This document shows, piece by piece, positions 4,251 to 62,409 of a DNA stretch of 64,000 nucleotides (position 1 is the stretch's first letter; each line of letters begins with the position of its first letter). The DNA comes from Leucoraja ocellata (taxonomy: Eukaryota), in contig JAWMAR010000007.1 of NCBI GenBank assembly GCA_036785375.1, forward strand, positions 10,974,001 through 11,038,000. Reading direction: 5' to 3'. The notes beneath the pieces were generated by a model. It searched no databases and was not told the DNA's origin. It saw nothing but the letters and a program-made list of their open reading frames with translations. Both the position numbers and the translations under genes were made by a program.

Positions 4251-4447
4251 CAGCATTGTAGGTTATATAAAAATGCAACCAGGCCACCTGCAATTACTCT
4301 ATTCAATTTGATTTGAGAATTCTGCATATTATTTATAAAGAAGATGAAGTTACATTTACAGTTACATTTCACCGCTCTAAAGCAGCGCAGGAGGGTCAGG
4401 GACAGATGGGTCAGAGTGGGAGTGGGATGGAGAAACATGGTCACAGA

Positions 4448-4655
4448 TGTGTAGGAAGGTACTGCAGATTCTGATTTATACCGAAGATAGACACAAAATG
4501 CTGGAGTAACACAACGTGCCAGGCAGCATCTATGGAGAAATGGAATAGATTCTACTTCAGGTCTGAAGAAGGCTTCCATTCACAAACATTACCTACTACT
4601 TTTCTCCAGAGATGCCGCATGATCTGCTGAGTTACTCCAGCATTTTGTGTCTATC
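4448..4655. mobile_element. Short palindromic Penelope-like terminal-repeat insertion with 14 bp target-site duplication
   Basis: aacatggtcacaga at both 4434-4447 and 4656-4669. Internal inverted arms agacacaaaatgctggagtaac...gttactccagcattttgtgtct. Related copies near 6100-6460, 9104-9310, 20030-20225, 20495-20755. Confidence 0.65.
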
Positions 4656-4756
4656 AACATGGTCACAGACACAGGTAAAGTATTGATAAAAATAAATGTG
4701 GGTAATGCATCCGACCAATGAATAATGTCCATATTTTAAATCTTTCTCTATCCGAG

Positions 4757-5125
4757 GTGATGTCAGCGCATCTATGGTGATCGGGAAGAGAGGAGGTGGT
4801 GCCACACTGAACTGCAACTTCAAACACTCGAGTGCAAATACCAGGGTGATCACTATCCTCTGGATGAAGGGGACTCCATGGGAAGAGTCCGTTGTCTTTA
4901 AACATACCGGCTCCTACGCCACAAGCGGTCCCGGCACTGACAATGTAAATACAGGAGGTCGATATGAGCTGGTGGGAAACGTAGACAAGGGAGATGCCTC
5001 CATCAGAGTGAGGGGACTCACATTGAATGACACCAACATCTATTTCTGTCATGTTTGGACCTGGAATTCCCCTCTGAAGAAAAATATTCAGGTGACTCAG
5101 GATGAGACGGGACTACAGGTTTTGG
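4757..5125 (+). CDS. Ig V-set exon V1 of Siglec-15-like receptor gene, copy A
   Basis: Acceptor tctttctctatccgAG, donor G|GTAAGG, 369 nt, phase 1-1. Encodes ATLNCNF..ILWMKG..RYELVG..GDASIRV..LNDTNIYFCHV..GLQVL (B-strand Cys, C-strand Trp, DxxxYxC). Confidence 0.92.
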
Positions 5126-5315
5126 GTAAGGAAACAGTCAATGTTGAGGAGTAAATGATAAAATCACATTGAACAACTGTGAGAAGAATGAGCTTTGATC
5201 TGTTTCCTCTCTGAATATTTCACTCCATTCTCCCGCTTGGTCTCTTTCAAATCTTCACCGATTCCTGGTTCTCCCCCTGCACCAATGAATAACAGTGACT
5301 TTTATCCCTCTCTAG

Positions 5316-5463
5316 GCTTCAGCCATCATCTTGGAATGATGGTGATAATGTATCTGGAGATACGTGTGTGTGCAGGAGAGAATGGACAGGTTGATCATTT
5401 CAGCTGCCATTTGTTGAGTCTACTTTCTTGTGATTGGCTTCACTTTCTAGTGATTAAACATAG
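5316..5463 (+). pseudogene. Decayed C2-set/TM exon after V1
   Basis: Colinear similarity to 11650-12200, including the upstream intron and acceptor. Large internal deletions, TTC-TGC-TGG changed to TTC-TAG-TGA, donor GTGAAC changed to ATAAAC. Paralog near 40040-40190. Confidence 0.8.
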
Positions 5464-6848
5464 ATAAACATCATGTCTAATCTCCATTGCTGGTGTTCAT
5501 GGGAGAATCATGGGACCTCCAGTGACATTGTTGTCAGCCTCTGGTTCCGGTAATGGGGGAGGGGAGAAGAGAGAGTAACTCTGGTGTGAGTGATCCTTCA
5601 TTATGTTGGCTGCTTTCCCAAGGAATAAATGCAGTTGATGGGCGGGGGAACGAGGGAAAACCTTTTATTCATTCTACATGGTTAATCCTGAGCTTTCTGG
5701 TGCTTGTAATCCTAATCATCTATGCAATTCCCCCTCTGACTATTTTTTGTGACTTCCTTATAACCTGTCTAATGCAATTTGAAGAACAGGGCTCTCTGCA
5801 TCATTGCAGAATCCATTGAATTCAAGAATTTTGGATGATACTTTTTCTCTCTTTTATCAGAACTAACCAGTTCTACTGAAGATAAGCAAAATGGATTATT
5901 AATCAGTTATTCTCTGAACAATTATTGCAACTTAAAATAAGTTGGCTGAAGTTGCAGAGGTTGTATAGAGGGGTGGATTGGAAATAGGAAATATCTCTGA
6001 AAGGGTGAGTCTAGATTTGCTGTTGATGAAATTATCTGGTTGATAAATTAAGGAAGGAAACTGGAGACAGAGAACACAAACAAAGATAGAAACAGAGCTG
6101 CAAAATGCACGTCAGCTACAAGAAACACGCTGCAGATCAGGCAGCGTCAGTGGAGAGAGGAGAACTGAGTCAGTATTGCAGATGGATAACCTGCTGCAGA
6201 ACTTCTGATACAAACAGTGAGAAAGTTACCAGAAATTGTTGTATTCAATGTTGACTCAATGGTTCAATGGGTCAACCTAGAATAGAGCAATTTCTGGTGA
6301 CTTGCTCGCTGTTTGTATCAGATCTGGCGAGTTCTACAGCATCTGCGATACTGACTCAGTTCTCCTGAAAAAGAGTCACGACCCGAAACGTCACCGATTC
6401 ATTCTATCCAGAGATGCTGCCAGCCCGCTGAATTACTCCAGCATTTTGTGTCTATTTTCGGTTCAATGGTTTCTTTATTATCACATGTAGCAAGTACAGT
6501 GAAATACATTTTTGCATACAGATCAGTAAGAATATCACCGTACATAAATAAGCACAATCCCCCCGGTTAGTACATCATGTACACAAGAACCCACTGAGTC
6601 TGGGCAACAGTTGCCATTTTGCACCATTTTACAGTCCTCGATGCAGTGGCCACAGAGGCCCCATTGCAGCCGCCGCCTCCATTCCAGTTGTCCTGGAATG
6701 TTGACCCTCACCCTGCACAGCCCTATTCAGCCCTTCTTCCCCAGGGGTGGTGTGCGGTGGGGGGGGGCTCCTCCTGCAGATGAGATTAGGGAACGGAAGT
6801 TAAAAACTCCTCCACTCCGCCTGAGTCGGTTAACCAGGCATTTTCTCG

Positions 6849-8097: not shown

Positions 8098-8460
8098 GTG
8101 ATAATGACAGAGCATCCATGGTGATTGGGAAGAAGGGTGCGACTGCCACACTGCCCTGCTCCTTCAGTCCCTCGAACAGGAATCCCAGCTCCATCACCAT
8201 CAGCTGGATGAAGGGGAATCCACCAAAATGGTCTGTTGTCTTTCGTGACACTTCTCCCCGCCCAGCAGCAAATCGCATTCCTGAAAATGTGAATATAGAA
8301 AATCGATATGAGCTGGTGGGAAATGTGGAGCAGGGAGACGCCTCCATCAGAGTAAAGGGACTCAAACTGGATGACGCCAGTGATTACTCCTGTCACCTTT
8401 ATGTCAGGAATTCAACGTTGACGACTGTGACTCAGGATGAGATGAAACTGCAGGTTGTGC
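8098..8460 (+). CDS. Ig V-set exon V2, copy A
   Basis: Acceptor ctcttctctctgcaAG, donor C|GTAAGG, 363 nt, phase 1-1. Encodes ATLPCSF..ISWMKG..RYELVG..GDASIRV..LDDASDYSCHL..KLQVV. Confidence 0.92.
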
Positions 8461-9629: not shown

Positions 9630-9710
9630 CATGTGTGGGTTTGATATTTGAGCTGCCACATGTGGACTGCACTCTTACGATTGGCTTCACTTTCTCATGT
9701 TTGAACAGAG
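9630..9710 (+). pseudogene. Decayed TM exon remnant after V2
   Basis: gctgcc..cttacgattggcttcactttctcatgtttgaacagaG|GTGAAC aligns to the functional gctgcc..cttataattggcctcacattctgctggttgaagagaG|GTGAAC, and the downstream intron is also homologous. The Arg codon position reads TGA. Paralog near 44055-44135. Confidence 0.8.
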
Positions 9711-9862
9711 GTGAACGCCACTGTCTCATCTCCAATGTTAGTGTTGACGGGAGACTTGTGGCATCTCCAATGATATTGTCATCAGCCTCTAGCTATGGTG
9801 GTTTGGGTCAGGTAATATTGACTTTTGAGGCAGTTCTGGCCAGTTCTTATACTTAACAGTAA

Positions 9863-10528
9863 AGGGCTTGTCCCACTTAGGTGATTTTTTAGGCGACTGC
9901 CGGTGACTGTCATGGTCGTAGCAGGTTGCCGAAAAACCGGTGACTGGACCCCCCCCCCACGACAATGTCTACAACAACCAACCACCTAGTCGACGTTAAG
10001 CCATGACATCCGGCGACTCAATCGTCACGACTTAGGACGTCCACCTACGACCACACCTAGACAACCCTACGACCACACAGGTGACAACCTACGATAACTC
10101 GTCAACCGACCTCCACCCGCGACAAGCTACGACAAGCTACCACCCTGTCGGTGACAATTGAAGACTTCTCTTGACGCCGGTAGCTGTTGCCGGTTGACGC
10201 AGGTTGACGTAGGTAGTCCCCAAATGAATTCATCGAAGTCAGCAGCAGCGACAACATACATCATCCTGGCAACAACCTATGTTATCCTGGCGACAACTTA
10301 CGACAGCACCTACGTCAGGAGAAGACAAGCTACGACAAGCCCAAGATCGCTGAGTGTCGCCAAAAAGATTTGAACATTTCAAAATCCTGCGGCGACCAGA
10401 AAAACGCTACGGATCTTTGGGCGACTTGAGGAGACGACTCACGACCCTACATGTGACACCCGGCAACCGTGTGGTGACCGCCTAGTTGCCCGTTGTCGCC
10501 TAATAATCGCGTACGTTGGACAGGCCCT
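9863..10528. mobile_element. Non-autonomous PIF/Harbinger-type DNA transposon (MITE)
   Basis: Imperfect TIRs agggcttgtccca..ttaggcgac / gtcgcctaa..ttggacaggccct, TAA target duplication (9860-9862, 10529-10531), internal ctacgac repeats. Confidence 0.85.
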
Positions 10529-10757
10529 TAAGCAAGTTATTGAAATTGTTGTATTAAATGTTAACACAAAAGCTTCATGCTGCCCAGACAGAAGATGAGG
10601 TTGCTTGAGATTGGGCCTCGTTAGAACAGTGCAGGAGGTCTGAGACAGACAGATCAGAGCGGGAGTGGGATGGGGAATCAATGTCACAGGCATGGTTGAT
10701 GTATTTTTATAAACCATGTGGAATAGATTGTTTAAATACAACTTTTCTCTATACAAG

Positions 10758-11120
10758 ATGGAAAGAAGAAGACATCCATGGTGATTGGGAAGAGAAGAGA
10801 TTCAGCCACACTGCCCTGCTCCTTCAGCCCCTTGAACAAGAATCCCAGCCCCATCACTGTCCGCTGGATGAAGGGGAATCCACGGGAAGAGTCCACAGTC
10901 TTTAATCACACCCACCCCCACTCTGTGAACCCTCCCTCCACTGTCACTGTAAAGGGAGGAGGTCGATATAAGCTGGTGGGAAAACTAGACCGGGGAGACG
11001 CCTCTATCAGCGTGAAGGAACTCAGACTGGACGACAGCAGTGACTATTTCTGTTACGTTTGGGTCAGGAATTCCACACAGGAGACGGTGACTCAGGATGA
11101 GACTAAACTGGAGGTTGTGG
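10758..11120 (+). CDS. Ig V-set exon V3, copy A
   Basis: Acceptor cttttctctatacaAG, donor G|GTAAGG, 363 nt, phase 1-1. Encodes ATLPCSF..VRWMKG..RYKLVG..GDASISV..LDDSSDYFCYV..KLEVV. Confidence 0.92.
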
Positions 11121-11769
11121 GTAAGGAAATATCTGTCTGTGTTGTGCTGTGAGCGATAAAATCACATTAACAACTGTAAGAGGACATGAGATCCACTGAC
11201 AGCTGGAGCCAAGATCGGCCCAATCCATTGTAGGTTCCATTCCTTGCACCGGGCTTCCCTTGCTCAGCACTGCCCCTAGTGGTTGGAAAACAGTGCTGAT
11301 TCCAGCCAGGTTGCACGGAGCTCCCTGCAGCAGGATCAGAGATTCAGAACCATATTCACCTGCTGAACCTCCAGTCCCTGTGTCTGTGACATGGTCTGTG
11401 TTACAAAGATCCACAGACGGCTCTGGGGTATCATCCGTCTCTTTCATTCACATCGACTCCGGGATCCTGTATGTTCTCTCACTGAATATTACATAGAACA
11501 GTACAGCACAGGACCAGGCCCTTTGGCCCGCAATATCTGTGCAGAATATAATGGTTCTTTAAGTTAAACTAATATCATCTGCTGACACATGATCCATATC
11601 CCTCCATTCCCTGTAGATCCATGTGCTTCTCAAAGACACCGTCATATCTGCAAATATTTCACTGCAGTCTCCTAGATGTGTCCTTCCAATCCCCATTCAG
11701 ATGGACTCTATCTGCACACACCAACAGTGATTAATTCAATGAATTTAATACATTTTTTCCTTCTCCAAG

Positions 11770-12135
11770 TCCCAGCCACCATCCTGGAGCTGTTCGTTGT
11801 GAGTGACAATGTAACTGGAGAGCCCACCCTCATGTGCAGGGCTGAAGGGAAGCCCCCTGCAAACATCGTGTGGATCGGCCCAGGGAACGGTGCACTGCCC
11901 GTGACCAGTAATGAGATGACAGTCACACATGATCCAGAGAAACTACTGACTGTGGGAGAGCTGCTTCACCTCAGGCTGCCAGGGAAATACATGTGTGTGG
12001 CTGTGAATGAACACCAGATGGACACGCGTGAGATTCGCCTTTTCGAGGATGGACTAAGAGCGTTGGCCATTCGGGCTGCCATTTATGCCGTCTATTTTCT
12101 TATAATTGGCCTCACATTCTGCTGGTTGAAGAGAG
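11770..12135 (+). CDS. Ig C2-set + transmembrane exon, copy A (may read through to stop at 12234-12236)
   Basis: Acceptor ttttttccttctccaAG, phase 1. Encodes LMCRAEGKPPANIVWIGP..GKYMCVAVNEH (compare Siglec-15 LCTAEGEPPPALAWSGP..GRYTCTAANSLG, from memory), then TM ALAIRAAIYAVYFLIIGLTFCWL and KR. Weak donor G|GTGAAC. Confidence 0.88.
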
Positions 12136-12348
12136 GTGAACGTCTTCATCTCAGTTCCATTGCCGGTGTCAACAGGAGGGATGCTGCACCTCCAGTGACA
12201 GTGTCAGGTTCTTTTGTTGTAGATCAGGCAGTGTAACTTCGGAGATAAACAATGCTACATTCCCGCAGCTATGACCGTGTGTCTGTGGAGTACATGCAGC
12301 TGTCCTCACGTCAGTCTGAATCAGTGGCCCCTCCTTTGTTTCTTGTGC

Positions 12349-12354
12349 AATAAA
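12349..12354 (+). terminator. Candidate polyadenylation signal, copy A
   Basis: AATAAA 113 nt after the read-through stop; homologous to AATAAA at 48108 in copy B. Confidence 0.45.
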
Positions 12355-12769
12355 AACCAGCATTCCATTTGTCTTAACAACTGTTTACAATACCTGCACG
12401 CAAGTCTCGTGTTTCACGTGTACGTACCCAATGTTAGGGGAAAATGAAACGGCAAGTTATTATTTGATTGGTATGTGACTGCAATCCTTTTCTTAACTGT
12501 CTTCCACGTATCTTAACACCATCACCCTCATTCTACGGCCCACTGGTTCCTATTAGATTTCATTCCCCCAATATAAGTGCTATTTTGCATACCTACCTAA
12601 TTTTTGCAAACCTACCTGTGGTATTTGATTAAAGATCTTCTGAACATGCAGATACACTGCACCCACTCACATTTTCCTACCAATTACATTCTTGGAAACA
12701 AACTCCCAGCACAGCTGTCAACCATTGAATAAATAAAAATGCTTGCAGTTCTGATTTCCCCAGTACAGG

Positions 12770-13230: not shown

Positions 13231-13429
13231 GAAAAATACAAATTGATTTAATCTAATCCTTTGAAACTTTCAAAATGTGCTGTTATCACATGTATAGATT
13301 AAGCAAAATAAATGCTAATTGTGTGAGGCTAACTGGTGTGTAGTTTGTTTATTTCTCTCAAACATCATTTGTTGCATTTGACACTTGCCAACCTTCAGAA
13401 AACATTGCAGAAGATGTGAATTTGGGGCC

Positions 13430-13860
13430 ATTACGTCCAGTGCATTTTGCGGTGACAGGGGAAAGTGGCAGTGGAAAGGGAGACGTGAGTGTGAAGGGGA
13501 TGAGTGCACCTGGGTGCAGGGGCAAAGTGGTCTCTTGTCAAGGCAGAAATGGGAGGCGACATAAAGATAAGACCTGGGGTGGGCATCGTGTTGAAATTGA
13601 TGGAAATATCATAGAATGTTCTCGTGGATGTGGAGGCTGGTGGGGTAAATGATAAGGTCCAGGGAACCCTAAACCTGTTCTGCCTGGGGGAAGGGTGGGG
13701 TGGTGGTGGGGGGGGGGGGGGGGGGGGGGGCTGTACGAATGGAGGAGACACAGGTGAGGGCATCATCCACAACTGTGGGGTGTGTGGGGCAACCATGTTT
13801 CCTCTAAGGAGATCTCCTAGAGTGGAAATCACCCATCTTGAAATCATCTCAAGATGAGGA
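13430..13860 (-). mobile_element. Penelope-like retroelement fragment
   Basis: Reverse strand resembles the degenerate 3' region of elasmobranch Penelope-like elements (ctttacccc accagcctccacatcc.. pattern); recognised from memory only. Confidence 0.5.
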
Positions 13861-18400: not shown

Positions 18401-19218
18401 ATCTGCACACCCAGCAACCCAGGAAATTTGTTGGATTTTTTTGAAGAAGATGGGTTTATGGATCCACGGATTTCCCAGGGTCCACACACAAACTCACCCA
18501 ACAACCTGTGTATCTTTGGGTGCAGTTTGACCTGGTTTCTTCCCATATCCCAGGGTATCACAGATTAGGATTGGACTCTGGTCTCTGGAGCTGTTCAGAG
18601 TTTGTTCTACTCATGCAACATTAATTTGTCCCTCTAATAGGTGAGTGGTAAAATCGTAGATGTGGAGGTGAGGTGTTGGAGTTGATGCAGATGTGGGCAG
18701 ATTAAAATGAGTCCCACAGTTTTTTGTCTCCATTTTACTGATCCACTGTGAAATCTATTCAAAATTTCCCTCTGGGAGTTCTGTGAATTCTTGCACCTTT
18801 TAGCTCAGGGACTCCAGTCACCCACAGACAGGAGACAACTGGAAGACAGTTGACTGGACCTTGATGCTGTTATGTGAGCAGCTACACCTTCTGTGGGACT
18901 TCTGGGACCTGGTTCCAATCTACAGTTTGTTTGTTGGGTGTAAATTTTGCAGCATAGGTTGGAGATCTGAACCAGAGGGTGACACCCTCATTGCATCTGC
19001 CAGTTCCACTCAGATTCAGCAAGGATGGAGACTGGATGACTGAAATGCAGTGTGTCAAAATGGACTTTGCCATTTGATGCTGGCTGACAATTCTTGCAAA
19101 GTCTCTGGAGCCCTTTTACACTCTGTGTTAACTGCACAACTCAGAAAACGGCAGGAAGCAGCAAGGAGTCTTGGTCCCACCGAACCTAAAGGATTCGAAG
19201 GCTCAATAAGAGAAGTGA

Positions 19219-19259
19219 ATGTTTTTGATTTGCCTTTGCACTGCCTGTCTCCACTGATC
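19219..19259 (+). pseudogene. Inactivated paralog of the signal-peptide exon
   Basis: Homologous to 30327-30375 with flanks (about 18975-19389). 8 nt shorter, frameshifted to TGA, donor GTAAGT changed to GTACAA. Confidence 0.8.
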
Positions 19260-19389
19260 GTACAAATATTTTAATACAGAGCAGCAGTTGGTTTTCTGGC
19301 TGCTTCACTGTGAGTGAAACATATATCTATGAGATAGACTGGGCTGTCCACGGCAATGGAGCAAAATCAGTCTTTTGATGCTATACTTA

Positions 19390-29885: not shown

Positions 29886-30326
29886 ATGCATGCATTCAAT
29901 CATACATGCATTCATTCATTCATCCATTCATTCATTCGTTAAGAATTATGCACGGTATCACATATCAAATATTTGGTGGTGCATTGAGGGATGATGCAGG
30001 GTCTTGACCTGAAAAGTCAAAAAAGTGCGGTGTGGACTTGAAATATTGCTGGCATACCACCGACAGCAGTCAGAGGGTGAAGCCCTTGTTGCTGCTGTCA
30101 GTTCCACTCAGTTTGTGCTGGACAAGGACTGGTTGATTGAAATGCAAAGTGTCAAAATTGACTTCTCCATTTGAAGCTGTATGACAATTCTTGCAAAGTC
30201 TCTTGCGCCCTTTTACACTCTATGTTAAATGTAAAATTCAGAAAACTACAGAAAACTGCAGGAGTCTCGGTTCTACTCGTCCAGTGGATAGACTTACGGC
30301 ATTTGAAAGCTCAACGAGAGAAGAGA

Positions 30327-30375
30327 ATGCTGTTCATTTTGCTTTGTGCCTTTGCACTGCCTGTCACCGCTAATC
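30327..30375 (+). CDS. Signal-peptide (leader) exon of receptor gene copy B
   Basis: ATG in agaATG context, MLFILLCAFALPVTAN + C, perfect donor GTAAGT. Phase 1 matches all V acceptors. Identical copy at 62177-62225. The link to the V exons is inferred. Confidence 0.78.
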
Positions 30376-32029
30376 GTAAGTATCCTTTAATAAGGAACAG
30401 AAGTTGCTTTTCTGGCTGTTTCACTGTGAGTGAAATGATTAACTGTATGAGATAGACATGTGTGTCCGTGGAAACAGAGCAGGATCAGTCTTTTGATGCT
30501 GTACTTAAGATGACAGGCAGTCTTCCAGAAAGGCAATATGTATGTGTGTGAAGACCTTTAATACAAACATTTTACAATACAGTAAATGATCGGTTTGAGA
30601 TTATAAGGCTGGAGTCAGAGCAGCTGGGGAGATTGTGTTTAGTTGTCGACCCCACACTTCTGAATGAAGATATTAGCCCTTGAGAGGGAGTGAAGGGCGT
30701 TGTGTCCTTGGCATAGTTTAAAAGTGAAGATGATGAGAAATATGTTCACTGAGAGTAATGCACCTATAGAATTATCGAATTGAAAGTAGTTCAAGCCAAG
30801 CCACCTCTTGTCTTCAGCAAGGAGCTGAATATATTCCCAGGCTAAAGAAATCAAGGGGAATGGGGACAAAGTTCAATTCAGTATTGATTAGCAATTAAGA
30901 GCCATAATCATATTGACTGTTGACCAGGCTTGAACAGCCGAATGGCTTCCTGTGTTGCTCTGAATGTCTTTGCGCTCATTGTTGATTCTGATCCTAATCA
31001 AATTGGTTTTGGTTTATTATTGTCACATGTACTGAGGTACCGTGAACACCTGCACCTGGGATAATACCTTTCTCAAAATAACATCTCATATGTGAAGAAT
31101 GAATCCCCAATCTTCCAATATACCTTGTTGTGGCCACAAAGATTTTTAATAAACGACAATTCCTCTGTAGGTGCAATGCTATATTATTTACTCTATTTGT
31201 TTTCTCTAATGCACTAAGTGATGTAATGAAAAAAATGAAATGATTCAATTTATTGTCATTGTCAGTGTACAGTACAGAGACAACGAAATGCATTCAAGAT
31301 GTAATCAAGAATGGTACAATTTAGCCAGATAACACACAAAATAATTTTTCGTCTATCTCAGTATACATGAAAATAATAAACCAATACTAATTTTCCTCAA
31401 TCAGTATTACCGGCCCATCTAAAATGTCCCTTCCCTCTCCATTATCAACACCTTGTAGCCAGAACCATTAAATGTCTGGTTCTGCCCCAACTCTGCATCA
31501 TTTTTCCATATAGATATTTCTACCTGTCAATAACCAGGCTCACTCACATATTTACTATTTTCGTACTATCTGCCACTCCCAATCTTGGTGCACCTTATTT
31601 CTCTTTTCTCTTGCCACACACTAGTAATAGATACTGATCCATTACTTTGTCTGTTCGGCTCAAACTCTTCTTCGTGCACCAATAAATCTCCCTACTACGA
31701 CACTGTCCCAGTGTGGCTGAGGTGCAACCCATTGATCTTGGAGAGGTCTTTCCTGTTGCAGAACTGGTCCAATGCCCCTAGAATTTAGAGCAGAAACGAG
31801 AAAGTCACGAAAATTAGTGCAGTAATTAAAATGTCCTGAGCATTGGAGCAGTAACCAGAATTCTGGTGGATTAGCACAGCACCTAGAATATCACAAGAAT
31901 TGAACAGTAATTCAGCTCAAAAATCAATCCATGGCTCCCCAGCCCCAGTTTCTACCACTGACCGAAAAACACTGAGGGCAACTTAGAGTAGTCTGTTAAT
32001 TAACGATGCGCATCAATTTGAGAAGGAGA

Positions 32030-39483: not shown

Positions 39484-39850
39484 GTGATGTCAGCGCATCT
39501 ATGGTGATCGGGAAGAGAGGAGGTGGTGCCACACTGAACTGCAACTTCAAACACTCGAGTGCAAATAGCAGGGTGATCACTATCCTCTGGATGAAGGGGA
39601 CTCCATGGGAAGAGTCCGTTGTCTTTAAACATACCCGCTCCTACGCCACGTGGTCCCGGCACTGACAATGTAAATAGAGGAGGTCGCTATGAGCTGGTGG
39701 GAAACGTAGACAATGGAGATGCCTCCATCAGAGTGAGGGGACTCATGTTGAATGACACCAACAACTATTTCTGTCATGTTTGGACCTGGAATTCCCCTCT
39801 GAAGAAAAATTATCAGGTGACTCAGGATGAGATGGGACTACAGGTTTTGG
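39484..39850 (+). pseudogene. V1 exon, copy B, frameshifted
   Basis: Splice sites intact but 367 nt. A 2 nt loss near 39650 (gccacaagcggt vs gccacgtggt) gives TGA at 39663-39665. Confidence 0.88.
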
Positions 39851-42807
39851 GTAAGGAAACAGTCATTGTTGAGAAGTAAATGATAAAATCACATTGAACA
39901 ACTGTGAAAAGAATGAGCTTCGTTCTGTTTCGTCTCTGAATATTTCACTCCATTCTCCCGCTGGGTCTCTTTCAAATCTTCACCCCTTCCTGGTTCTCCC
40001 CCTGCACCAATGAATAACAGTGACGTTTATCCCTCTTTAGGCTTCAGCCACCATCTTGGAGCGATGGTGATAATGTATCTGGAGATACGTGTGTGTGCGG
40101 GAGAGAATAGACAGGTTGATCATTTCAGCTGCCATTTGTTGAGTCTACTTTCTTGTGATTGGCTTCACTTTCTAGTGGTTAAACATAGATAAACATCATG
40201 TCTAATATCCATTGCGGGTGTTGATGGGAGAATCATGGGACCTCCAGTGACATTGTTGTCAGCCTCTGGTTCCGGTAATGGGGGAGGGGAGAAGAGAGAG
40301 TAACTCGGGTGTGAGTGATCCTTCATTATGTTGGCTGCTTCCCCAATGAATAAATGCAGTTGATGGGCGGGGGAACGAGGGAAAACCTTTTATTCATTGT
40401 ACATGGTTAATCCTGAGCTTTCTGGTGCTTGTAATCTTAATCATTCCTGCAATTCCCCCTCTGACTATTTTTTGTGACTTCCTTATAACCAGTCTAATGC
40501 AATTTGAAGAACAGGGCTCTCTGCATCATTGCAGACTCCATTTAATTCAAGAATTTTGGATGATACTTTTTCTCTCTTTTATCAGAACTAACCAGTTGTA
40601 CTGAAGATAAGCAAAATGGAATATTAATCAGTTATACTCTGAACAATTATTGCAACTTAAAATAAGTTAGCTGAAGTTGCAGAGGTTGTATAGAGGGGTG
40701 GATTGGAAATAGGAAATATCTATGAAAGGGTGAGTCTAGGTTTGCTGTTGATGAAATTATCTGGTTGATAAATTAAGGAAGGAAACTGGAGACAGAGAAC
40801 ACAAACAAAGATAGAAACAGAGCTGCAAAACGCACGTCAGCTGCACGAAACACGCTGCAGATCAGGCAGCGTCAGTGGAGAGAGGAGAACTGAGTCAGTA
40901 TTGCAGATGGATAACCTGCTGCAGAACTTCTGTTACAAACAGCGAGAAAGTTACCAGAAATTGTTGTATTCAATGTTGACTCAATGGTTCAATGGGGCAA
41001 CCGTGAATAGAGACATTTCTGGTGACTTGCTCGCTGTTTGTATCAGAACTGGCGAGTTCTACAGCATCTGCGATACTGACTCAGTTCTCCTGAAGAAGAG
41101 TCACGACCCGAAACGTCACCGATTCATTCTATCCAGAGATGCTGCCTGCCCGCTGAATTACTCCAGCATTTTGTGTCTATTTTCGGTTCAATGGTTTCTT
41201 TATTATCACATGTAGCAAGTACAGTGAAATACTTTTTTGCATACAGATCAGTAAGAATATCACCGTACATAAATAAGCACAATCCCCCCGGTTAGTACAT
41301 CATGTACAGAAGAACCCACTGAGTCTGGGCAACAGTTGCCATTTTGCACCATTTTACAGTCCTCGATGCAGTGGCCACAGAGGCCCCATTGCAGCCGCCG
41401 CCTCCATTCCAGTTGTCCTGGAATGTTGACCCTCACCCTGGACAGTCCTATTCAGCCCTTCTTCCCCAGGGGTGGTGTGTGGTGGGGGGGGGGGGCTCCT
41501 CCCGCAGATGAGATTAGCGAACGGAAGTTAAAAACGCCTCCACCCCTCCTGAGTCGGTTAACCAGGCATTTTCTGGTTGGCTGCCAGTTACTAGCAGAGT
41601 TCCGCAGGGCTCGGTGCTGGGGCCGCTGCTCTTCACGTTGTATATTAATGATTTGGATGAGGGGATTGAAGGCTTTGTGGCCAAGTTTGCGGTTTATACA
41701 AAAATAGGTGGATAGGCAGGTAGTGCAGAGAAAGCAGGGTCTCTGCAGAAGAACTTGGATAGGTTGGAGAGTGGGCAGAGAAGTGGCAGATGGAAAGGTG
41801 TGGAAAAGTGTGGAGTCATGTATTTTGGTAATAGGATTAAAGGCGTTGGTTACTTTCTAAATGGGGAGAGAATCCAGAAATCGGAGGTGCAAGGTGACTT
41901 GAGAATGCTGGTGCAGGATTCACAAAAAGTTAATCTGCAAGTTGAATCAGTTGTAAAGAAAGCAAACGTAATGCTAGCATTTATTTCGAGAGGGTTTATA
42001 TGCAAAAGTAGGGATGTAATGCTGAGACTCTTTCAGGCGCTGGTCAGGCCACATTTGGAATATTGTGAGCAATTTTAGGCACCATATCTGAGGAAGGATG
42101 TGCTGGCTCTGGAGAGGGTCCAGAGGAGGTTCACAAGAATGATCCCAGGAATGAGTAGGATAACATCAGATGAATATTTGACGGCACTGGGCCTATGTTT
42201 GCTGCAGTTTAGAAGAATGAGGGAGGACGACATTGAAACAGACAGAATAGCGAAAGGCTAGGATGTGGAGAGGATGCTTCCACTAGTGGGAGAGTTGAAG
42301 ACGAGAGGTTTTAGCCTCAGAATTAAAGGACGTTCTTTTAGGAAGGAGATGAGGATGAATTTATTTGGTATGAGGGTGGTGAATCTATGGAATTCATTGC
42401 CACAGATGGCTGTGGAGGCAAAGTCAGTGGATATATTTAAGGCAGAGATAAGTAGATTCCTGATTAGTGCAGATGTCAGAGGTAATGAGAAGTGCTTCGG
42501 GTGCAGAACCTAAGACCCGCCCCCTCCCCACCTAATTCAGTTAACCGCGCCTTTAGTCACACTCCATCCTCCTCTCCAGTTCCTGGTCTTCAAGGTCAAG
42601 GCTCCATCCTGGCCAGACTGAAGCTGAGATGTCTTTACTTGAGATTGGCCCTTCTTAGAATAGTGCAGGTCAGGAACAGGTGGATCAGAGTGGAATGGGA
42701 TGGAGAATCCAAGTCACAAGTATGGATGAACTATTGATAAAGACTGTATGGTTATTGTATTCAATTACTAAATCATATTCACACTTTAAAACTCTTCTCT
42801 CTGCAAG

Positions 42808-43170
42808 GTGATAATGACAGAGCATCCATGGTGATTGGGAGGAAGGGTGCGACTGCCACACTGCCCTGCTCCTTCAGTCCCTCGAACAGGAATCCCAGCT
42901 CTATCATCATCAGCTGGATGAAGGGGAATCCACCAAAATGGTCTGTTGTCTTTCGCGACACTTCTCCCCGCCCAGCAGCAAATCACATTCCTGAAAATGT
43001 GAATATAGAAAATCGATATGAGCTGGTGGGAAATCTGGAGCAGGGAGACGCCTCCATCAGAGTGAAGGGACTCAAACTGGATGACGCCAGTGATTACTCC
43101 TGTCACGTTTATGTCAGGAATTCAGGGTTGACGACTGTGACTCCGGATGAGATGAAACTGCAGGTTGTGG
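42808..43170 (+). CDS. Ig V-set exon V2, copy B (intact)
   Basis: AG/GTAAG intact, 363 nt, open frame. Confidence 0.88.
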
Positions 43171-44287
43171 GTAAGGAAACGTATGTTATGCTGTAAACGA
43201 TAATATCATATTGAACAACCTTAGGAGGAATGAGCTCCCACTGACAGTGTAGACCAGCACAGGAACAGGCCCTTTGGCCCGCAATGTCTGTATCGAACAT
43301 GATGCTACGTTAATCTCGTCTACCTGCAGGTGATGCATTTCTTCCATTATCTGCATTTCAAAAAGTCTCTAAAACTCCACTATCGTAGCTGCCTCCATCA
43401 ACCCTAACAGTATTTTCCAGGCACCCACCACCCTCTGTGTAAACAATAACTTTCCCCACATATCTCCTTTCATCTTTTCCCATCTGTCCTTATCATAATG
43501 CCGTCTATTCGTTGACATTTCCGCCGTAGGCAAAACGTTCTGACTCTCTCTCCTATCCATGTCTTTCATATTTTTATAAACTTTCAGCAGTCCAGACTTT
43601 CAGCAGTATCTTCTTCTTGACCTGAAACGTGACCCATCCTTTCTCTCCAGAGATGCTGCCTGTCCCGCTGAGTTACTCCAGCTTTTTGTGTCCATCTTCG
43701 GTTTTAACCAGCATCTGCAGTTCCTTCCTACACATCTTGTATTCAGTCCCTTGACCAATGAAAGCAAGAAAACTGTACACGTTTTTAACATTTGCCATTT
43801 TCAGGGAGTTATGGAATTGGATCCCAATATTTTTCTGTACATCAGTGGTATTAAGGGTCTTGCCCTTGTATATTTTCCACTTGCATTCAACCTCCTAAAG
43901 ACAACACTTCACATATGTTCGGATCAAACTCCATCTGCCATTTTTCTGCCTATATCTGTATTAGATTAAAATTTGTAGTATCTTTCGACAGTTCTACGTT
44001 CATCTGTCTTCCTCATGATACTCTTGCATTGTCAATGAGCAACACTACAGCCCATGTGTGGGTTTGATATTTGAGCTGCCACTTATGTGGACTGCACTCT
44101 TACGATTGGCTTCACTTTCTCATGTTTGAACAGAGGTGAACGCCACTGTCTCATCTCCAATGTTAGTGTTGACGGGAGACTTGTGGCATCTCCAGTGATA
44201 TTGTCATCAGCCTCTAGCTATGGTGGTTTGTGTCAGGTAATATTGACTTTTGAGGCAGTTCTGGCCAGTTCTTATACTTAACAGTAA

Positions 44288-44950
44288 AGGGCTTGTCCCA
44301 CTTAGGTGATTTTTTAGGCGTCTGCCGGTGACTGTCCTGGTCGTAGCAGGTTGCCGAAAAACCGGCCACTGGACCCCCCCTACGACAATGTCTACAACAA
44401 TCTACCACCTAGTCGACGTTAAGCCATGACAACCGGCGACTCAATCGTCACGACTTAGGACGTCCACCTACGACCACACCTAGACAACCTACGACCACAC
44501 AGGTGACAACCTACGATAACTCATCAACCGACCTCCCACCGCGACAAGCTACGACAAGTTACGACCCTGTCGGTGACAATTGAAGACTTCTCTTGACGCC
44601 GGTAGCTGTTGCCGGTTGACGCAGGTTGACGTAGGTAGTCCCCAAATGAATTCATCGAAGTCAGCAGCAGCGACAACATACATCATCCTGGCAACAACCT
44701 ATGTTATCCTGGTGACAACTTACGACAGCACCTACGTCAGGAGAAGACAAGCTACGACAAGCCCAAGATCGCTGAGTGTCGCCAAAAAGATTTGAACATT
44801 TCAAAATCCTGCGGCGACCAGAAAAACGCTACGGATCTTTGGGCGACTTGAGGAGACGACTCACGACCCTACATGTGACACCCGGCAACCGTGTGGTGAC
44901 CGCCTAGTCGCCCGTTGTCGCCTAATAATCGCGTACGTTGGACAGGCCCT
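44288..44950. mobile_element. PIF/Harbinger-type MITE (paralog of 9863-10528)
   Basis: Same TIRs and TAA TSD. Confidence 0.85.
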
Positions 44951-45179
44951 TAAGCAAGTTATTGAAATTGTTGTATTAAATGTTAACACAAAAGCTTCAT
45001 GCTGCCCAGACAGAAGATGAGGTTGCTTGAGATTGGGCCTCGTTAGAACAGTGCAGGAGGTCTGAGACAGACAGATCAGAGCGGGAGTGGGATGGGGAAT
45101 CAATGTCACAGGCATGGATGATGTATTTTTATAAACCATGTGGAATAGATTGTTTAAATACAACTTTTCTCTATACAAG

Positions 45180-45542
45180 ATGGAAAGAAGAACACATCGA
45201 TGGTGATTGGGAAGAGAAAAGATTCAGCCACACTGCCCTGCTCCTTCAGCCCCTTGAACAAGAATCCCAGCCCCATCACTGTCCGCTGGATGAAGGGGAA
45301 TCCACGGGAAGAGTCCACAGTCTTTAATCACACCCACCCCCACTCTGTGAACCCTCCCTCCACTGTCACTGTAAAGGGAGGAGGTCGATATGAGCTGGTG
45401 GGAAAACTAGACCAGGGAGACGCCTCTATCAGAGTGAAGGAACTCAGACTGGACGACAGCAGTGACTATTTCTGTTACGTTTGGGTCAGGAATTACACAC
45501 AGGAGACGGTGACTCAGGATGAGACTAAACTGGAGGTTGTGG
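45180..45542 (+). CDS. Ig V-set exon V3, copy B (intact)
   Basis: AG/GTAAGC intact, 363 nt, open frame. Confidence 0.88.
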
Positions 45543-46125
45543 GTAAGCAAATATCTGTCTGTGTTGTGCTGTGAGCGATAAAATCACATTAACAACTGTA
45601 AGAGGACATGAGATCCACTGACAGCTGGAGCCGAGATCAGCCCAATCCATTGTAGGTTCCATTCCTTGCACCGGGCTTCCCTTGCTCAGCACTGCCCCTA
45701 GTGGGTGGAAAACAGTGCTGATTCCAGCCAGGATGCACGGAGCTCCCTGTAGCAGGATCAGAGATTCAGAACCACATTCACCAGCTGAACCTCCAGTCCC
45801 TGTGTCTGTGACATGGTCTGTGTTACAAAGATCCACAGACGGCCCTGGGGTATCATCCGTCTCTTTCATTCACATCGACTCCGGGATCCTGTATGTTCTC
45901 TCACTGAATATTACATAGAACAGTACAGCACAGGACCAGGCCCTTTGGCCTGCAATATCTGTGCAGAATATAATGGTTCTGTAAGTTAAACTAATATCAT
46001 CTGCTGACACATGATCCATATCCCTCCATTCCCTGTAGATCCATGTGCTTCTAAAAGACACCGTCATATCTGCAAATATTTCACTGCAGTCTCCTAGATG
46101 TGTCCTTCCAATCCCCATTCAGATG

Positions 46126-46336
46126 GATCCAGAGAAACTACTGACTGTGGGAAAGCTGCTTCACCTCACGCTGCCAGGGAAATACACGTGTGTGGCTGAG
46201 AATGAACACCAGATGGACACGCGTGAGATTCGCGTAATCGAGGATGGACGAAGTGATGAAGTGTTGGCCATTCGGGCTGCCATTTATGCCGTCTATTTTC
46301 TTATAATTGGCCTCACATTCTGCTGGTTGAAGAGAG
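46126..46336 (+). pseudogene. C2/TM exon, copy B, 5' half and acceptor deleted
   Basis: cagatgGAtccagag joins copy A positions 11705 and 11933 (227 bp lost). The remainder encodes DPEKLL..KYTCVAENEH..TM. Confidence 0.88.
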
Positions 46337-47386
46337 GTGAACGTCTCCATCTCAGTTCCATTGCCGGTGTCAACAGGAGGGATGCTGCACCTCCAGTGAC
46401 AGTGTCAGGTTCTTTTGTTGTGGATCAGGCAGTGTAACTTCGGAGATAAACCATGCTACATTCCCGCAGCTATGACCGTGTGTCTGTGGGGTACATGCAG
46501 CTGTCCTCACGTCAGTCTGACTCAGCGGCCCCTCCCTCAGTAGTGTATCTGATACTTTTGCTACTGCATTGCTGCTGATTCCTGCATCCACATAGAACTC
46601 AAATTTCACATGGCTCTTAGCTGTCTTCCTGCATCCTAATCCATGGCTTAATCTCTACATTAGCTGACAGTGGCCTTAGCAGCTTTGAATCATTTCATCA
46701 ACTTCTTTGCTAATTCTTTCCCCAAGGCAGAGCAAGAATAGCTTTTCCCTGATCCTCATTTCCCACCCACTAGTCTCTGCATTCAGTGGATCAACCTTTA
46801 TAGCTTCTGTTACCATCAGTGCTGGTACACCAACAGACACATCTTCCACCTGCCTACACTTTCAGCATCCTGAGGGGTCCTTTCCCTTTGCGACTCCATC
46901 ATCTGCTCTTCCATTCCATTCAACCATTTACTCGGAACAGTGCATGGTGTAGCTTTCCAGGCTAGACTGTGCAATCAACAATATCGGTGAGCTCACTTTC
47001 TCTGTCTGTGTCAAAGCTGGTCAGCTGTGTTGTAGATAATCCATCTGCATTATGAACTTGTTTTCCTCTCTCTACGGGCACGGCCTGATCTGTGGCCATC
47101 TCCTGTAGCTCTGGCTTGCTTTTGCAGTTTCTACATGCTGTCTTTCTAAATGCCCAGATAGCTTTGTCAATCATTTATTACTATGGACACCAGGCCTTTC
47201 CCCTATGTCATTCCTTTTTCGCTGTCCCTCTCTCATTATCTCACTCTTTCTGTGCCAACAATCTTTTTTATTGTCTCAGCTATTCAATCAGAAGCATGAA
47301 CTCTTTCTCTCTGCACAGATGCCGCCTGACCTGTTGAGTATCCTTTGCACTCTGGAGAAACATTCCCTTTTCCTTGCGGATCACAG

Positions 47387-47413
47387 GTGTTCCCTGCAAT
47401 ATGGAGCGTGCGT
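47387..47413 (+). CDS. Candidate 27 nt cytoplasmic micro-exon (GVPCNMERA)
   Basis: ttcccttttccttgcggatcacAG acceptor and GTAAGC donor, phase 1-1, downstream of the TM exon; no homology support. Confidence 0.35.
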
Positions 47414-48107
47414 GTAAGCTGAAACCACATAATATTTTTTTTGCACTAATTCCAAGAGTGAATATTTTATTCTGCATCTCATATTTTTCACTGGTGATTT
47501 GTGAATTCTGCAAGGGAGAATTTCCATTACTGGAACAGCCGGAATATGGGCTTTACCCAAATTGGACTGGTGGTTGGGTTCAAGGATTGGGCACGTCTTG
47601 TAACATGAGATGAGATCTCCTGGTAAAGGGCGATGTCTACATTGAAGAATCTGGAATTCAGTTCACTTGTGTCTGAAGCCCGTGTGCTAAACTTTAATTA
47701 AGGCATTTACAATGGTGTGATGCAGTTGGTTAAAGTAGTTTCAAAATGATAGAAAATGCCTAGAGTAATGTTGTGAAGTTTATTTAAAAGAGGATTGGGA
47801 GATTGTAAGACTGAAGTAAACATCTTAAAAAATTATGAGGACAGGGTTGATGGAGAAAATTGGTAAATATAAAAGAGATGAAAGGAGCTTCTGCAAGTAT
47901 ATAAAAGGAACAGTCTCCAAAGCAAACAATGGATGAAAGCACCAAACGTACTGCAGAGACGCTGTCTGACGATGCAAAGATAGGTGAGTTAGCAAGTGAT
48001 GAGGACACAATAGGCCGGCACAGACATATAGATGGTTAAGGGAGTGGGGAAAAAATCAGCTGAATTAGTATGATGGGGGGGAATGTACCCTGTAATGTTT
48101 CTTGTGC

Positions 48108-55552: not shown

Positions 55553-56024
55553 AAAATAATCACGTTGGATTCCGGTTCAGGCCGTGGAGAGCCGTACACA
55601 TGAAAGTCTTGAATATTATTGCAGCTATCATCATATCAGCCTGGCCCAGGAATTCAAGGCAGTGACTCAAGAATGACCTGATCCAGTGGGAACTGGCTGC
55701 TATGCGGAGAAGCCGAGCTGAAACAGGGAGAGCCAGTGGATGTAGTGTACCTGGACTTTCAGAAAGCATTTGATGTCCCACATAGGAGATTAGTGGGCAA
55801 AATGAAAGCATATGGTATTGGTGGTAGGGTGCTGACATGGCGAGGGACTATAAAACCAGGAAGTGGTGTGCCTCAATCAGTGTCTGCAAGCTGGAGGAAG
55901 GCAGAGGGTCACGTTTCTCTGAGCTGTGAATACTGAACACATGTCTACTCAAATGTAGTTTCCTTAGTGGTTCTAAAACGCTTGCAGAATGTGTCTTTTT
56001 TGGTTCTAAAATGGTTTTTAGGTT

Positions 56025-56965
56025 CTCCCATCCCCACTTCTCCTCTCCCCTCTCTCCTCTCCCCTCTCCTCTCTCCCCCCTCTCCTCTACCTCCCTCTCC
56101 TCCCACCTCTCTCCCCATCCCCCCCTCTCCCATCCCCCCTCTCCTCTCCCCCCTCTCCTCTCCCCCCTCTCCTCCCTCTCCTCCCCCCCCCTCTCCTCTC
56201 CCCCTCTCCTCTCCCCTCCTCTCCTCTCCCCCCCTCTCCTCCCCTCTCCTCACCCACCTCTCCTCCCCCCCTCTCCTCCCCCCTCTCCTCCCCCCTCTCC
56301 TCTATCCCCCCTCTCCTCTCCCCCCCATCCCCCCATATCCCCCCCTCTCCACCTCTCCAATCCTCTCCTCTCCATCTCCCCCCTCTCTCCCTCTCCTCTC
56401 CTCTACTCTCCCCACCTCTCCCCACCTCACTCCTCCTCTCTCCCCCCCTCTACCCCCCTCTCTCCCCCCTCTCTCCTCCCCCCCTCTCCACTCCCCCCTC
56501 TCCTCACCCCTCTCCTCCCCCCCTCCCCCCTCTCCTCCCCCCCTCTCATCCCCCCCTCTCCTCTCCCCCTCTCCTCCCCCCTCCTCTTCCCCCTCTCTCT
56601 CCCCTCTTTTTCTCCCCCCTCCCCTCCATCCCCCTCATCATTCCTCCCCTAAACCCCCTCCCCTCCACACTCCCTACCCTCTTCCCTCCACCCTCCCTCC
56701 CTTCCCTGCTCCCCACCTCTCCCCCTCACTCCCCTCTCAGCACCCCCCTCTCTCCCCCTCACTCTCACCATCCTCTCTCCTCCCCTCCTCCCCCACCTTC
56801 CCCCCCTCACCCACCCTCCCTCTTATCCTCCTCTCCATTCCCCTATCCTTCTTGCCCCTCTCTCTGTGTTTCTGTCTCTCTCTCTGTCTCTGCCCCTTCT
56901 CTCTCTGCCCTCACTCTCTACCCCACCCCACCCCCCCCCCCCCCCCCCCCCCCCCGCCCCCTCTC
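56025..56965. repeat. Polypyrimidine low-complexity tract (CCTCT-like)
   Basis: About 940 bp of almost only C and T on the + strand. Confidence 0.97.
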
Positions 56966-57618
56966 TAGATGTGACTGCAAGTTGGGGGCTATGCGTCAGT
57001 AGATAGGGTGGTTATGGGTAAAAAGAGCAAATTAATAATATTAATATAATATCAAGGGGGTAATTAGCGTGAGTGCGGGGGGGGGGGGATAGTTAGTGTG
57101 TGTGACGCTGTGTGCCGCCTGCCCCCCTCCCCCCACAACCGCACGTTGGGGGAACATACCCAACGGGTCTGCACTTGGTCTAGTCTATATTACTAAATCT
57201 CTGTTCTTGACCGCATTTGGCCTTCTCTGCTGCAATTTCTGAGAGAACACCACCACCTAAGGCCGTCATTTTTGGCCACCTTGCTCAGAGCCCCCCTCTG
57301 TGTGCCGAGGATTTATCCCGTCGATGAAAAATGACGGAGATATTAATGTTTTTACAAAATCCCCCATTCTCTCCGTAGCCCCTGCTGGAGGGAGGGGGAG
57401 GGACTATAAAGCCAGGAAGTGGTGTGCCTCAATCAGTCTCTCATCAAGATGGAGCTCCGTCAATTAGTCTCTGTCACTCTGAGCTCTGAATGACACTGAA
57501 CAAATTTCTTCACACCTGTGAGTAAGTACCCTTAATGTGGCTTGAAAATGAAAATATAGTTAGTTTGAAATAAAAAAGCACTGCCTACAAATGGTTGTTT
57601 GGGGGGGGGGGGTTTGGT

Positions 57619-57780: not shown

Positions 57781-57977
57781 CCCCCCCTCTCCCCATCCCC
57801 CCCTCTCCTCTCCTCCCCCCCCTCTCCTCCCCCCCTCTCTTCCCCCCCTCTCCTCTCCTCTCCCCCCTCCTCTCTCCTCCCCCTCTCTCCTGTAACGCTG
57901 CATGCCGCCTCCCCCCCCCCCCCCCCCCACAACCGCACGTTGGGGGAGCAGACCCAAAGGGTCTGCACTTGGTCTAG

Positions 57978-62200: not shown

Positions 62201-62409
62201 TTTGCACTGCCTGTCACCGCTAATCGTAAGTATCCTTTAATAAGGAACAGAAGTTGCTTTTCTGGCTGTTTCACTGTGAGTGAAATGATTAACTGTATGA
62301 GATAGACATGTGTGTCCGTGGAAACAGAGCAGGATCAGTCTTTTGATGCTGTACTTAAGGTGACAGGCAGTCTTCCAGAAAGGGAATATGTATGTGTGTG
62401 AAGACCTTT
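59221..62409 (+). repeat. Segmental duplication block, start of third unit (copy C)
   Basis: Paralog of 26988-30559. Confidence 0.95.
62177..62225 (+). CDS. Signal-peptide exon of receptor gene copy C
   Basis: Identical to 30327-30375: MLFILLCAFALPVTAN, donor GTAAGT. Confidence 0.75.

Follow-up and report, generated by a model that had tools for sequence, protein, structure and literature searches.

A broken copy of a receptor gene's own terminal exon, which encodes the C2 domain and an arginine-bearing transmembrane segment (Arg-type C2-TM), lies at 5316–5551 in the intron following V1, the first of three repeated V domains. There is good reason to believe that this copy (relic 1), likely skipped in splicing, likely records the expansion of a skate Siglec-15-like receptor from two V domains to four. 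Unless a contig prefix is given, positions are those of the window, i.e. the whole stretch of DNA analysed (64 000 nt of the Leucoraja ocellata genome, C7:10974001–11038000), and all features mapped in it lie on the forward strand.

The gene specifies a Siglec-15-like skate receptor with its parts in the order L-V0-V1-V2-V3-C2-TM. The leader (L) and V0 are located 9.1 and 4.2 kb, respectively, before the start of the window; within it are the V1 (4757–5125; Pfam V-set, E 2.3e-15; bounded by AG and GTAAGG), V2 (8098–8460) and V3 (10758–11120) exons, the latter two also matching Pfam V-set, followed by the working C2-TM exon (11770–12236), which scored 22.7 bits against C2-set_2 (cut-off 21), encodes an Arg in its TM and reads through a GT at 12136–12137 to a stop. 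All V exons are of phase 1-1. When the L-V0-V1-V2-V3-C2-TM exons were joined by script, 664 codons were open and the ends were AG/GT. The best PDB match was human Siglec-15 (7zoz; V0 E 3e-14, V3 E 1.4e-7). V0, the fourth V domain, lies outside the repeated block and supplies the N-terminal V-set domain with the essential arginine that characterises a Siglec: in all six V0 exons found an Arg occupies the position aligned with that of the FCRV motif of 7zoz, while V1, V2 and V3 lack the Siglec arginine. V1, V2 and V3 are each flanked, 5′ and 3′, by introns that are mutually homologous; the intron located 5′ of V1 (4289–4756, with a short repeat at 4445–4655) resembles those 5′ of V2 and V3 (4289–4446 versus 10541–10689: 103/149, z 21). 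Three further observations were made around this gene. An exon-like segment at 13399–13484, with AG and GTGAGT ends, matches a segment of the Rhinoraja models P0013 and P0008, and is a candidate for an alternative tail exon or 3′ UTR exon in Arg-TM genes. A stretch of 1.56 kb on the 3′ side of the two other Arg-TM copies is missing from the window's first gene copy (12334–12337 versus 46536–48095), and this brings an AATAAA at 12349 close to the stop. Finally, 27 kb before the window begins lies a separate V-set exon (C7:10947170–10947620) that is divergent and encodes a YFCRVE motif; it possibly belongs to another Siglec-like gene.

Relic 1 was compared with the working exon and its surroundings by local alignment against 11600–12400, each piece being assessed with 1000 dinucleotide shuffles and 300 random genomic stretches. 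The region 5205–5531 proved to consist of four pieces collinear with 11642–12204. The original prediction had taken 5210–5315 for a copy of the intron preceding C2 and 5316 onwards for the start of the C2 exon, and both identifications held: 5205–5313 matched 11642–11757 (75/108 identical, z 7.8), and 5300–5360 matched 11753–11821 (46/61, z 9.6), the relic's C2-exon start (5316–5360) bearing an 8-nt deletion. The predicted jump to the YxC strand and then to the TM was also found, with ∼166 nt of C2 missing in between: 5356–5388 matched 11983–12013 (25/31, z 5.4), and the Arg-type TM and tail (5378–5551) aligned over 5378–5531 with 12045–12204 (111/154, z 31.7). Relic 1 thus aligns significantly, and in order, with an exon that still works in its own gene, as would be expected of a pseudoexon from local duplication; the likeness is specifically to the Arg-type version, since no match was obtained with either the uncharged or the Lys TM (z 0.2 each). 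Further downstream, 5784–5915 likely derives from the 3′ flank of an Arg-TM exon (versus 46935–47069, 85/130; its score of 169 was reached by none of the 300 genomic controls, the best of which scored 157). The first block begins near 4289 and reaches 5551 or beyond, likely as far as 5915. Chance likeness or an interspersed repeat could be suspected from the shortness of the YxC piece and the pyrimidine-rich composition of the intron piece. Against this, the four pieces are collinear and the score of each was reached by 0/1000 shuffles and 0/300 genomic stretches; moreover, when the animal's own genome (3.44 Gb) was searched with the relic, 17/17 matches fell inside a single C7 cluster (counts being lower bounds) and dispersed copies were not found. 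Such an origin is hardly credible.

The lesions in relic 1 are numerous. At 5360 a deletion has removed ∼166 nt of C2, and GGAGA/GGAAA microhomology is seen where the ends were joined. The ancestral acceptor AG (11768–11769) aligns with GG (5315–5316) within an ungapped block (5299–5335 versus 11752–11788), and a new AG at 5314–5315, one base upstream, would lead into a shifted frame. Stops are found at 5415–5417 (TGA), 5448–5450 (TAG) and 5451–5453 (TGA). The prediction had noted two consecutive stops, TAG TGA, and both exist in the window at 5448–5453; the TAG is present in all seven copies of the gene found in the cluster, as is the TGA at 5415–5417, but the second stop of the pair is private to the window's first copy, the other six reading TGG. 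The donor was rightly described as changed from GT to AT; this occurs at 5464–5465 in 7/7 copies. Between the two deletions, the stops, the acceptor shift (GG in 7/7 copies) and the GT-to-AT change, the original frame and splice signals are disabled in all seven copies.

Relic 1 does keep a good-looking AG, an open frame of 50 codons and an AATAAA at 5624, all conserved in 7/7 copies. It might therefore be a live alternative last exon, giving a short V0-V1 product of ∼317 residues outside the original TM frame, possibly acting as a decoy. However, the cluster copies of relic 1 are 96–97% alike, and when the 13 observed changes were placed at random the frame was still open in 49% of 20000 trials; no selection on the 50-codon frame was detected (5/13 changes synonymous versus 3.8 expected, P = 0.33). 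Nor was the relic used by any of the four Leucoraja and Amblyraja models that contain V1; in the models of these genera V1 is joined to V2, and V1-V2-V3-C2 run on without the relic. No RNA data set was listed as containing the C2-TM exon; four sequence runs (X1–X4) from one study, of a kind not on record, were also consulted, their contigs giving no levels. In X1–X3 exons and introns were covered evenly and contigs ran through the V1 donor, while X4 was exon-bounded and was taken as RNA-like. X4 contigs ended at 5125, the V1 donor, and at 8459 (the V2 donor); cover was absent at 5161–5265 and 5511–5545, to which no weight was given, and the sole listed contig over relic 1 was unspliced, starting in the intron at 5286. 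A V1-V2 joint was not displayed among the X4 contigs, the joint table being swamped by repeats. Taken together, relic 1 is likely skipped in splicing, and its use as a live last exon is very improbable.

The prediction had further proposed that loss of the internal anchor, whose donor is destroyed, allowed V1 to be joined to the downstream unit. The GT after the TM ends the TM exon in ITIM-type and Lys-type relatives, so calling it a donor was a fair reading. In the Arg-TM genes, it is read through in three of five Rhinoraja models and in a sawfish model, and spliced in the other two Rhinoraja models; in the working exon an X4 contig spans 12067–12334 without gaps, bridging it. A second relic, described below, retains its GT, and donor loss is thus not the general cause of skipping. 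Relic 1 lacks both original splice sites, and relic 2 has the GT but no acceptor.

Relic 2 (9635–9799), in the intron after V2, comprises an Arg-type TM and tail only (versus 12058–12206, 101/147, z 27). Its donor at 9711–9712 (AGAG/GTGAAC in the window) is kept in the six copies that could be read out, the seventh not being parsed. No acceptor was found, and the sequence upstream showed no trace of C2 or of the pre-C2 intron (z 0.5; 177/300 controls scored equally high). Against the Arg TM, relics 1 and 2 scored 323 and 301, compared with 55–104 against the uncharged or Lys TMs, the top of that range being a weak match of relic 2 to the uncharged-TM region (score 104, z 4.6). An insertion of ∼670 nt with short inverted ends (about 9860–10531) lies between relic 2 and V3 in 7/7 copies and has a 72% relative at C7:11291899–11292527; once it is removed, relic 2 abuts the intron upstream of V3.

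The seven gene copies lie at C7 10.98–11.35 Mb, have the same order of parts, and all carry both relics, the first behind V1 and the second behind V2. Three have an Arg TM with a short, tyrosine-free tail, and four an uncharged TM with a GTGAGT donor and tyrosine-motif exons. One such motif, LIYSIV in model P0001, fits the ITIM pattern, and in the stretch read a match to its exon occurs in three of the four copies with an uncharged TM. The two types diverge inside the last common exon, at the end of C2; their V and C2 exons are 92.6–98.9% identical to those of the window's first copy (V0, 88–91%). These linked genes thus combine near-identical ectodomains with, at the sequence level, a charged TM and short tail in some and an uncharged TM with ITIM in others, as paired receptors do. 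Both relics are of the Arg-TM type even in the four uncharged-TM copies. Some copies are damaged. That at 39485–46535, with relics at about 39925–40285 and 44064–44215, has a frameshift in V1 and a deletion of the 5′ half of C2, and no V0 was found for it; of two others, one has a split V2, and one a stop in V1 and a cut V3. Several other features were recorded in and around the cluster. In the uncharged-TM genes the exons for the tyrosine-motif tails themselves occur in tandem, in as many as four copies, of which some contain stops (C7:11072346–11080864, 11162683–11168148 and 11364166–11375274). A decayed leader-like copy (19193–19302) and two leader exons of the next gene copies (30280–30420 and 62130–62270) were seen in the window, as was a degenerate tandem repeat array flanking a stretch of Ns on both sides (56024–56967 and 57781–57927). 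Elsewhere, at C10:6172529–6549917, V-set exons that are more distantly related (33–45% identity to V3) make up a second cluster.

The closest proteins were those of the skates Leucoraja, Amblyraja and Rhinoraja, many of them named Siglec-15 by NCBI. The architectures of relatives rest on NCBI-predicted protein models. Full-length models from sawfish (Pristis), stingray (Hypanus), devil ray (Mobula), sevengill shark (Heptranchias) and chimaera (Callorhinchus) have the order V0-V-C2-TM, i.e. two V domains with a single one of the second type. A paralogue at C7:3.75 Mb is likewise L-V0-V-C2-TM, with a Lys in its TM and a V0 lacking the Arg. A record of domain accretion, as originally suggested, is therefore what the DNA appears to hold: there is a second relic, the V exons have homologous flanks, and one such V in ray and shark relatives stands against three in skates. 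The prediction had also advised looking for an intact orthologous exon in related species. The sawfish (Pristis pectinata) model XP_051876576.1 (P0024; partial, 187 residues) does have an intact V-C2-Arg TM-tail, 94/149 residues being identical to the working C2-TM exon; this protein-level match makes it a candidate orthologue of the relic. Its TM and tail match those of relic 1 at 33/58 residues, relic 2 at 34/58 and the working exon at 31/55. The working TM is thus no closer to that of sawfish than are the dead relics, which is odd for a simple triplication with one copy under selection. Other models showed variant domain numbers: a V0 present two or three times over, a double V2, or chimeras looking like V2/V3 (P0167 and P0168 from Callorhinchus, P0019 from Amblyraja, P0008 and P0011–P0013 from Rhinoraja); judging by these gene models, the domain number of this receptor family seems to change repeatedly.

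The prediction held that a whole [V-C2-TM] block had been triplicated. This agrees with the remains of both C2 and TM after V1, but only a TM is found after V2. Two unequal steps might then be envisaged, in which the whole [V-C2-TM] block was copied first and only [TM relic-spacer-V-part of intron] second, in which case relic 2 lacked a C2 and an acceptor from the outset. The absence of any C2 trace before relic 2 is in line with this. In a tree of V domains (24 chosen rows; domains missed by the pattern, such as the first V of P0019 and P0009, were left out), V2 and V3, together with the V of the Lys paralogue, formed a clade with support 95/96. The introns upstream of V2 and V3 shared 22 private sites within one block, versus 6 and 12 for the other pairings, and 32 sites were common to relics 1 and 2 only, versus 17 and 17 (P = 0.008). 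The grouping of the relics as sisters failed, however, when the sawfish protein was used as outgroup: no site then grouped both relics, against 0 and 3 for the other groupings, and the 32 shared sites are therefore largely ancestral states. In addition, the block adjacent to the intron acceptor gave 6 sites versus 12 and 10, and synonymous divergence did not single out V2 and V3 as the closest pair (dS: V1-V3, 0.31; V2-V3, 0.42; V1-V2, 0.53).

The V trees are also blurred by the likely history of V3. Between V3 (10758–11120) and the V of the Lys paralogue (C7:3751088–3751451), 7 Mb away, dS was 0.12, versus 0.28–0.53 in the other comparisons, and the likeness is confined to the exon, the flanks being 48–57% identical. 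From this pattern, V3 was likely converted by the Lys paralogue through long-range gene conversion. Such conversion would explain why V1, V2 and V3 alone were rejected as a clade (p-AU 0.024), while with the Lys-paralogue V added the clade was not rejected (p-AU 0.446). V1, V2 and V3 each formed a supported clade of their own that included Rhinoraja; the extra domains therefore predate the split of these skates. All considered, the two-step history is a serious possibility that falls a little short of even.

Another route would be the fusion of neighbouring V0-V-C2-TM genes arranged head to tail, with Arg-type genes upstream and an inhibitory one downstream, followed by deletion of the downstream leader and V0. 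It gives a direct account of the Arg-type relics found in uncharged-TM genes, and a Mobula model (P0021) indeed consists of an Arg-TM unit and an uncharged-TM unit placed head to tail. The two relics and the working TM differ from one another about as much as each does from its sawfish counterpart, a pattern expected of old paralogues, and V1 did not group with V2 and V3 in the tree. Yet no match to a leader or V0 was found between the V exons, relic 2 adjoins the V3 upstream intron after excision of the insertion, and the scheme requires two deletions with similar ends plus a later TM swap to produce the four-V Arg genes. A fusion of neighbouring paralogous genes fits the data as well as intragenic duplication does; it is nevertheless regarded as rather unlikely.

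The preferred explanation would run as follows. Early in skate ancestry, a [V-intron-C2-TM-3′ flank] block of an Arg-TM gene would twice have come to lie before another V. Since all exons are of phase 1-1, skipping an internal anchor would join V to V in frame. Relic 1 would have been disabled by several lesions (the acceptor shift, the two deletions, the stops and the loss of the donor), and relic 2 has no acceptor. The four-V ectodomain would then have come to be shared by genes of the predicted activating and the predicted inhibitory kind, through exchange where C2 meets the TM, and this proposed exchange would explain why the uncharged-TM genes carry Arg-TM fossils. The likely effect is a longer and more varied ectodomain, with the Arg-bearing V0 further from the membrane. 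A bolder version, in which the family are paired receptors derived from the Siglec-15 branch, their four-V ectodomain was put together by absorbing activating genes, the inhibitory members are chimeras with two fossil activating anchors, and relic 1 perhaps yields a soluble V0-V1 decoy, is considered unlikely as a whole.

Domain accretion through tandem duplication of symmetric phase-1 immunoglobulin exons is well known, and the skate genes share with it the phase 1-1 exons, the in-frame joining and the homologous intron flanks; they differ in that the copied unit held a terminal anchor exon that needed silencing, the remains of which can still be read. The sawfish protein P0024 has the V-C2-Arg TM-tail arrangement and a tail matching the relics, but it is intact, comes from a partial model and is known as a protein only. 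Siglec-15 proper has one V and one C2 domain. The skate receptor resembles it in the V0 Arg that aligns with the FCRV Arg of 7zoz and in the NCBI naming of many relatives, but has four V domains and one C2, of which V1–V3 lack the Arg; its TM carries an Arg (3/7 copies) or is uncharged (4/7), rather than bearing a Lys, and it belongs to a multigene cluster with tyrosine-motif members. According to PMC7226832, the TM lysine of Siglec-15 is conserved and its essential arginine is numbered R143 (the mapping of this residue onto the FCRV motif of 7zoz was made in the present analysis). In PMC5701461, PMC2832619 and PMC13358205, paired receptors with opposing anchors are described as being kept alike by conversion or recombination, examples being Siglecs 11/16 and 5/14 and the CEACAM1/ITAM pairs. 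The skate set is similar in its near-identical ectodomains and opposing anchors, but stems from a Siglec-15-like branch in cartilaginous fish, has its switch point inside a single C2-TM exon, and retains intronic fossils of Arg anchors in its uncharged-TM genes. In the literature covered, no description was found of the cluster, of the relics, or of a Siglec-15-related activating/inhibitory set in cartilaginous fishes.

The process is of a known kind with an unusually legible record. Domain gain is usually deduced from protein trees; here the DNA retains the discarded anchors, a deletion joint and the ends of the blocks, and these retained fossils make the route testable once a small number of further genomes from skates and rays are compared. 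They also give the direction of exchange: DNA of an Arg-TM gene would have built the ectodomain of the uncharged-TM genes.
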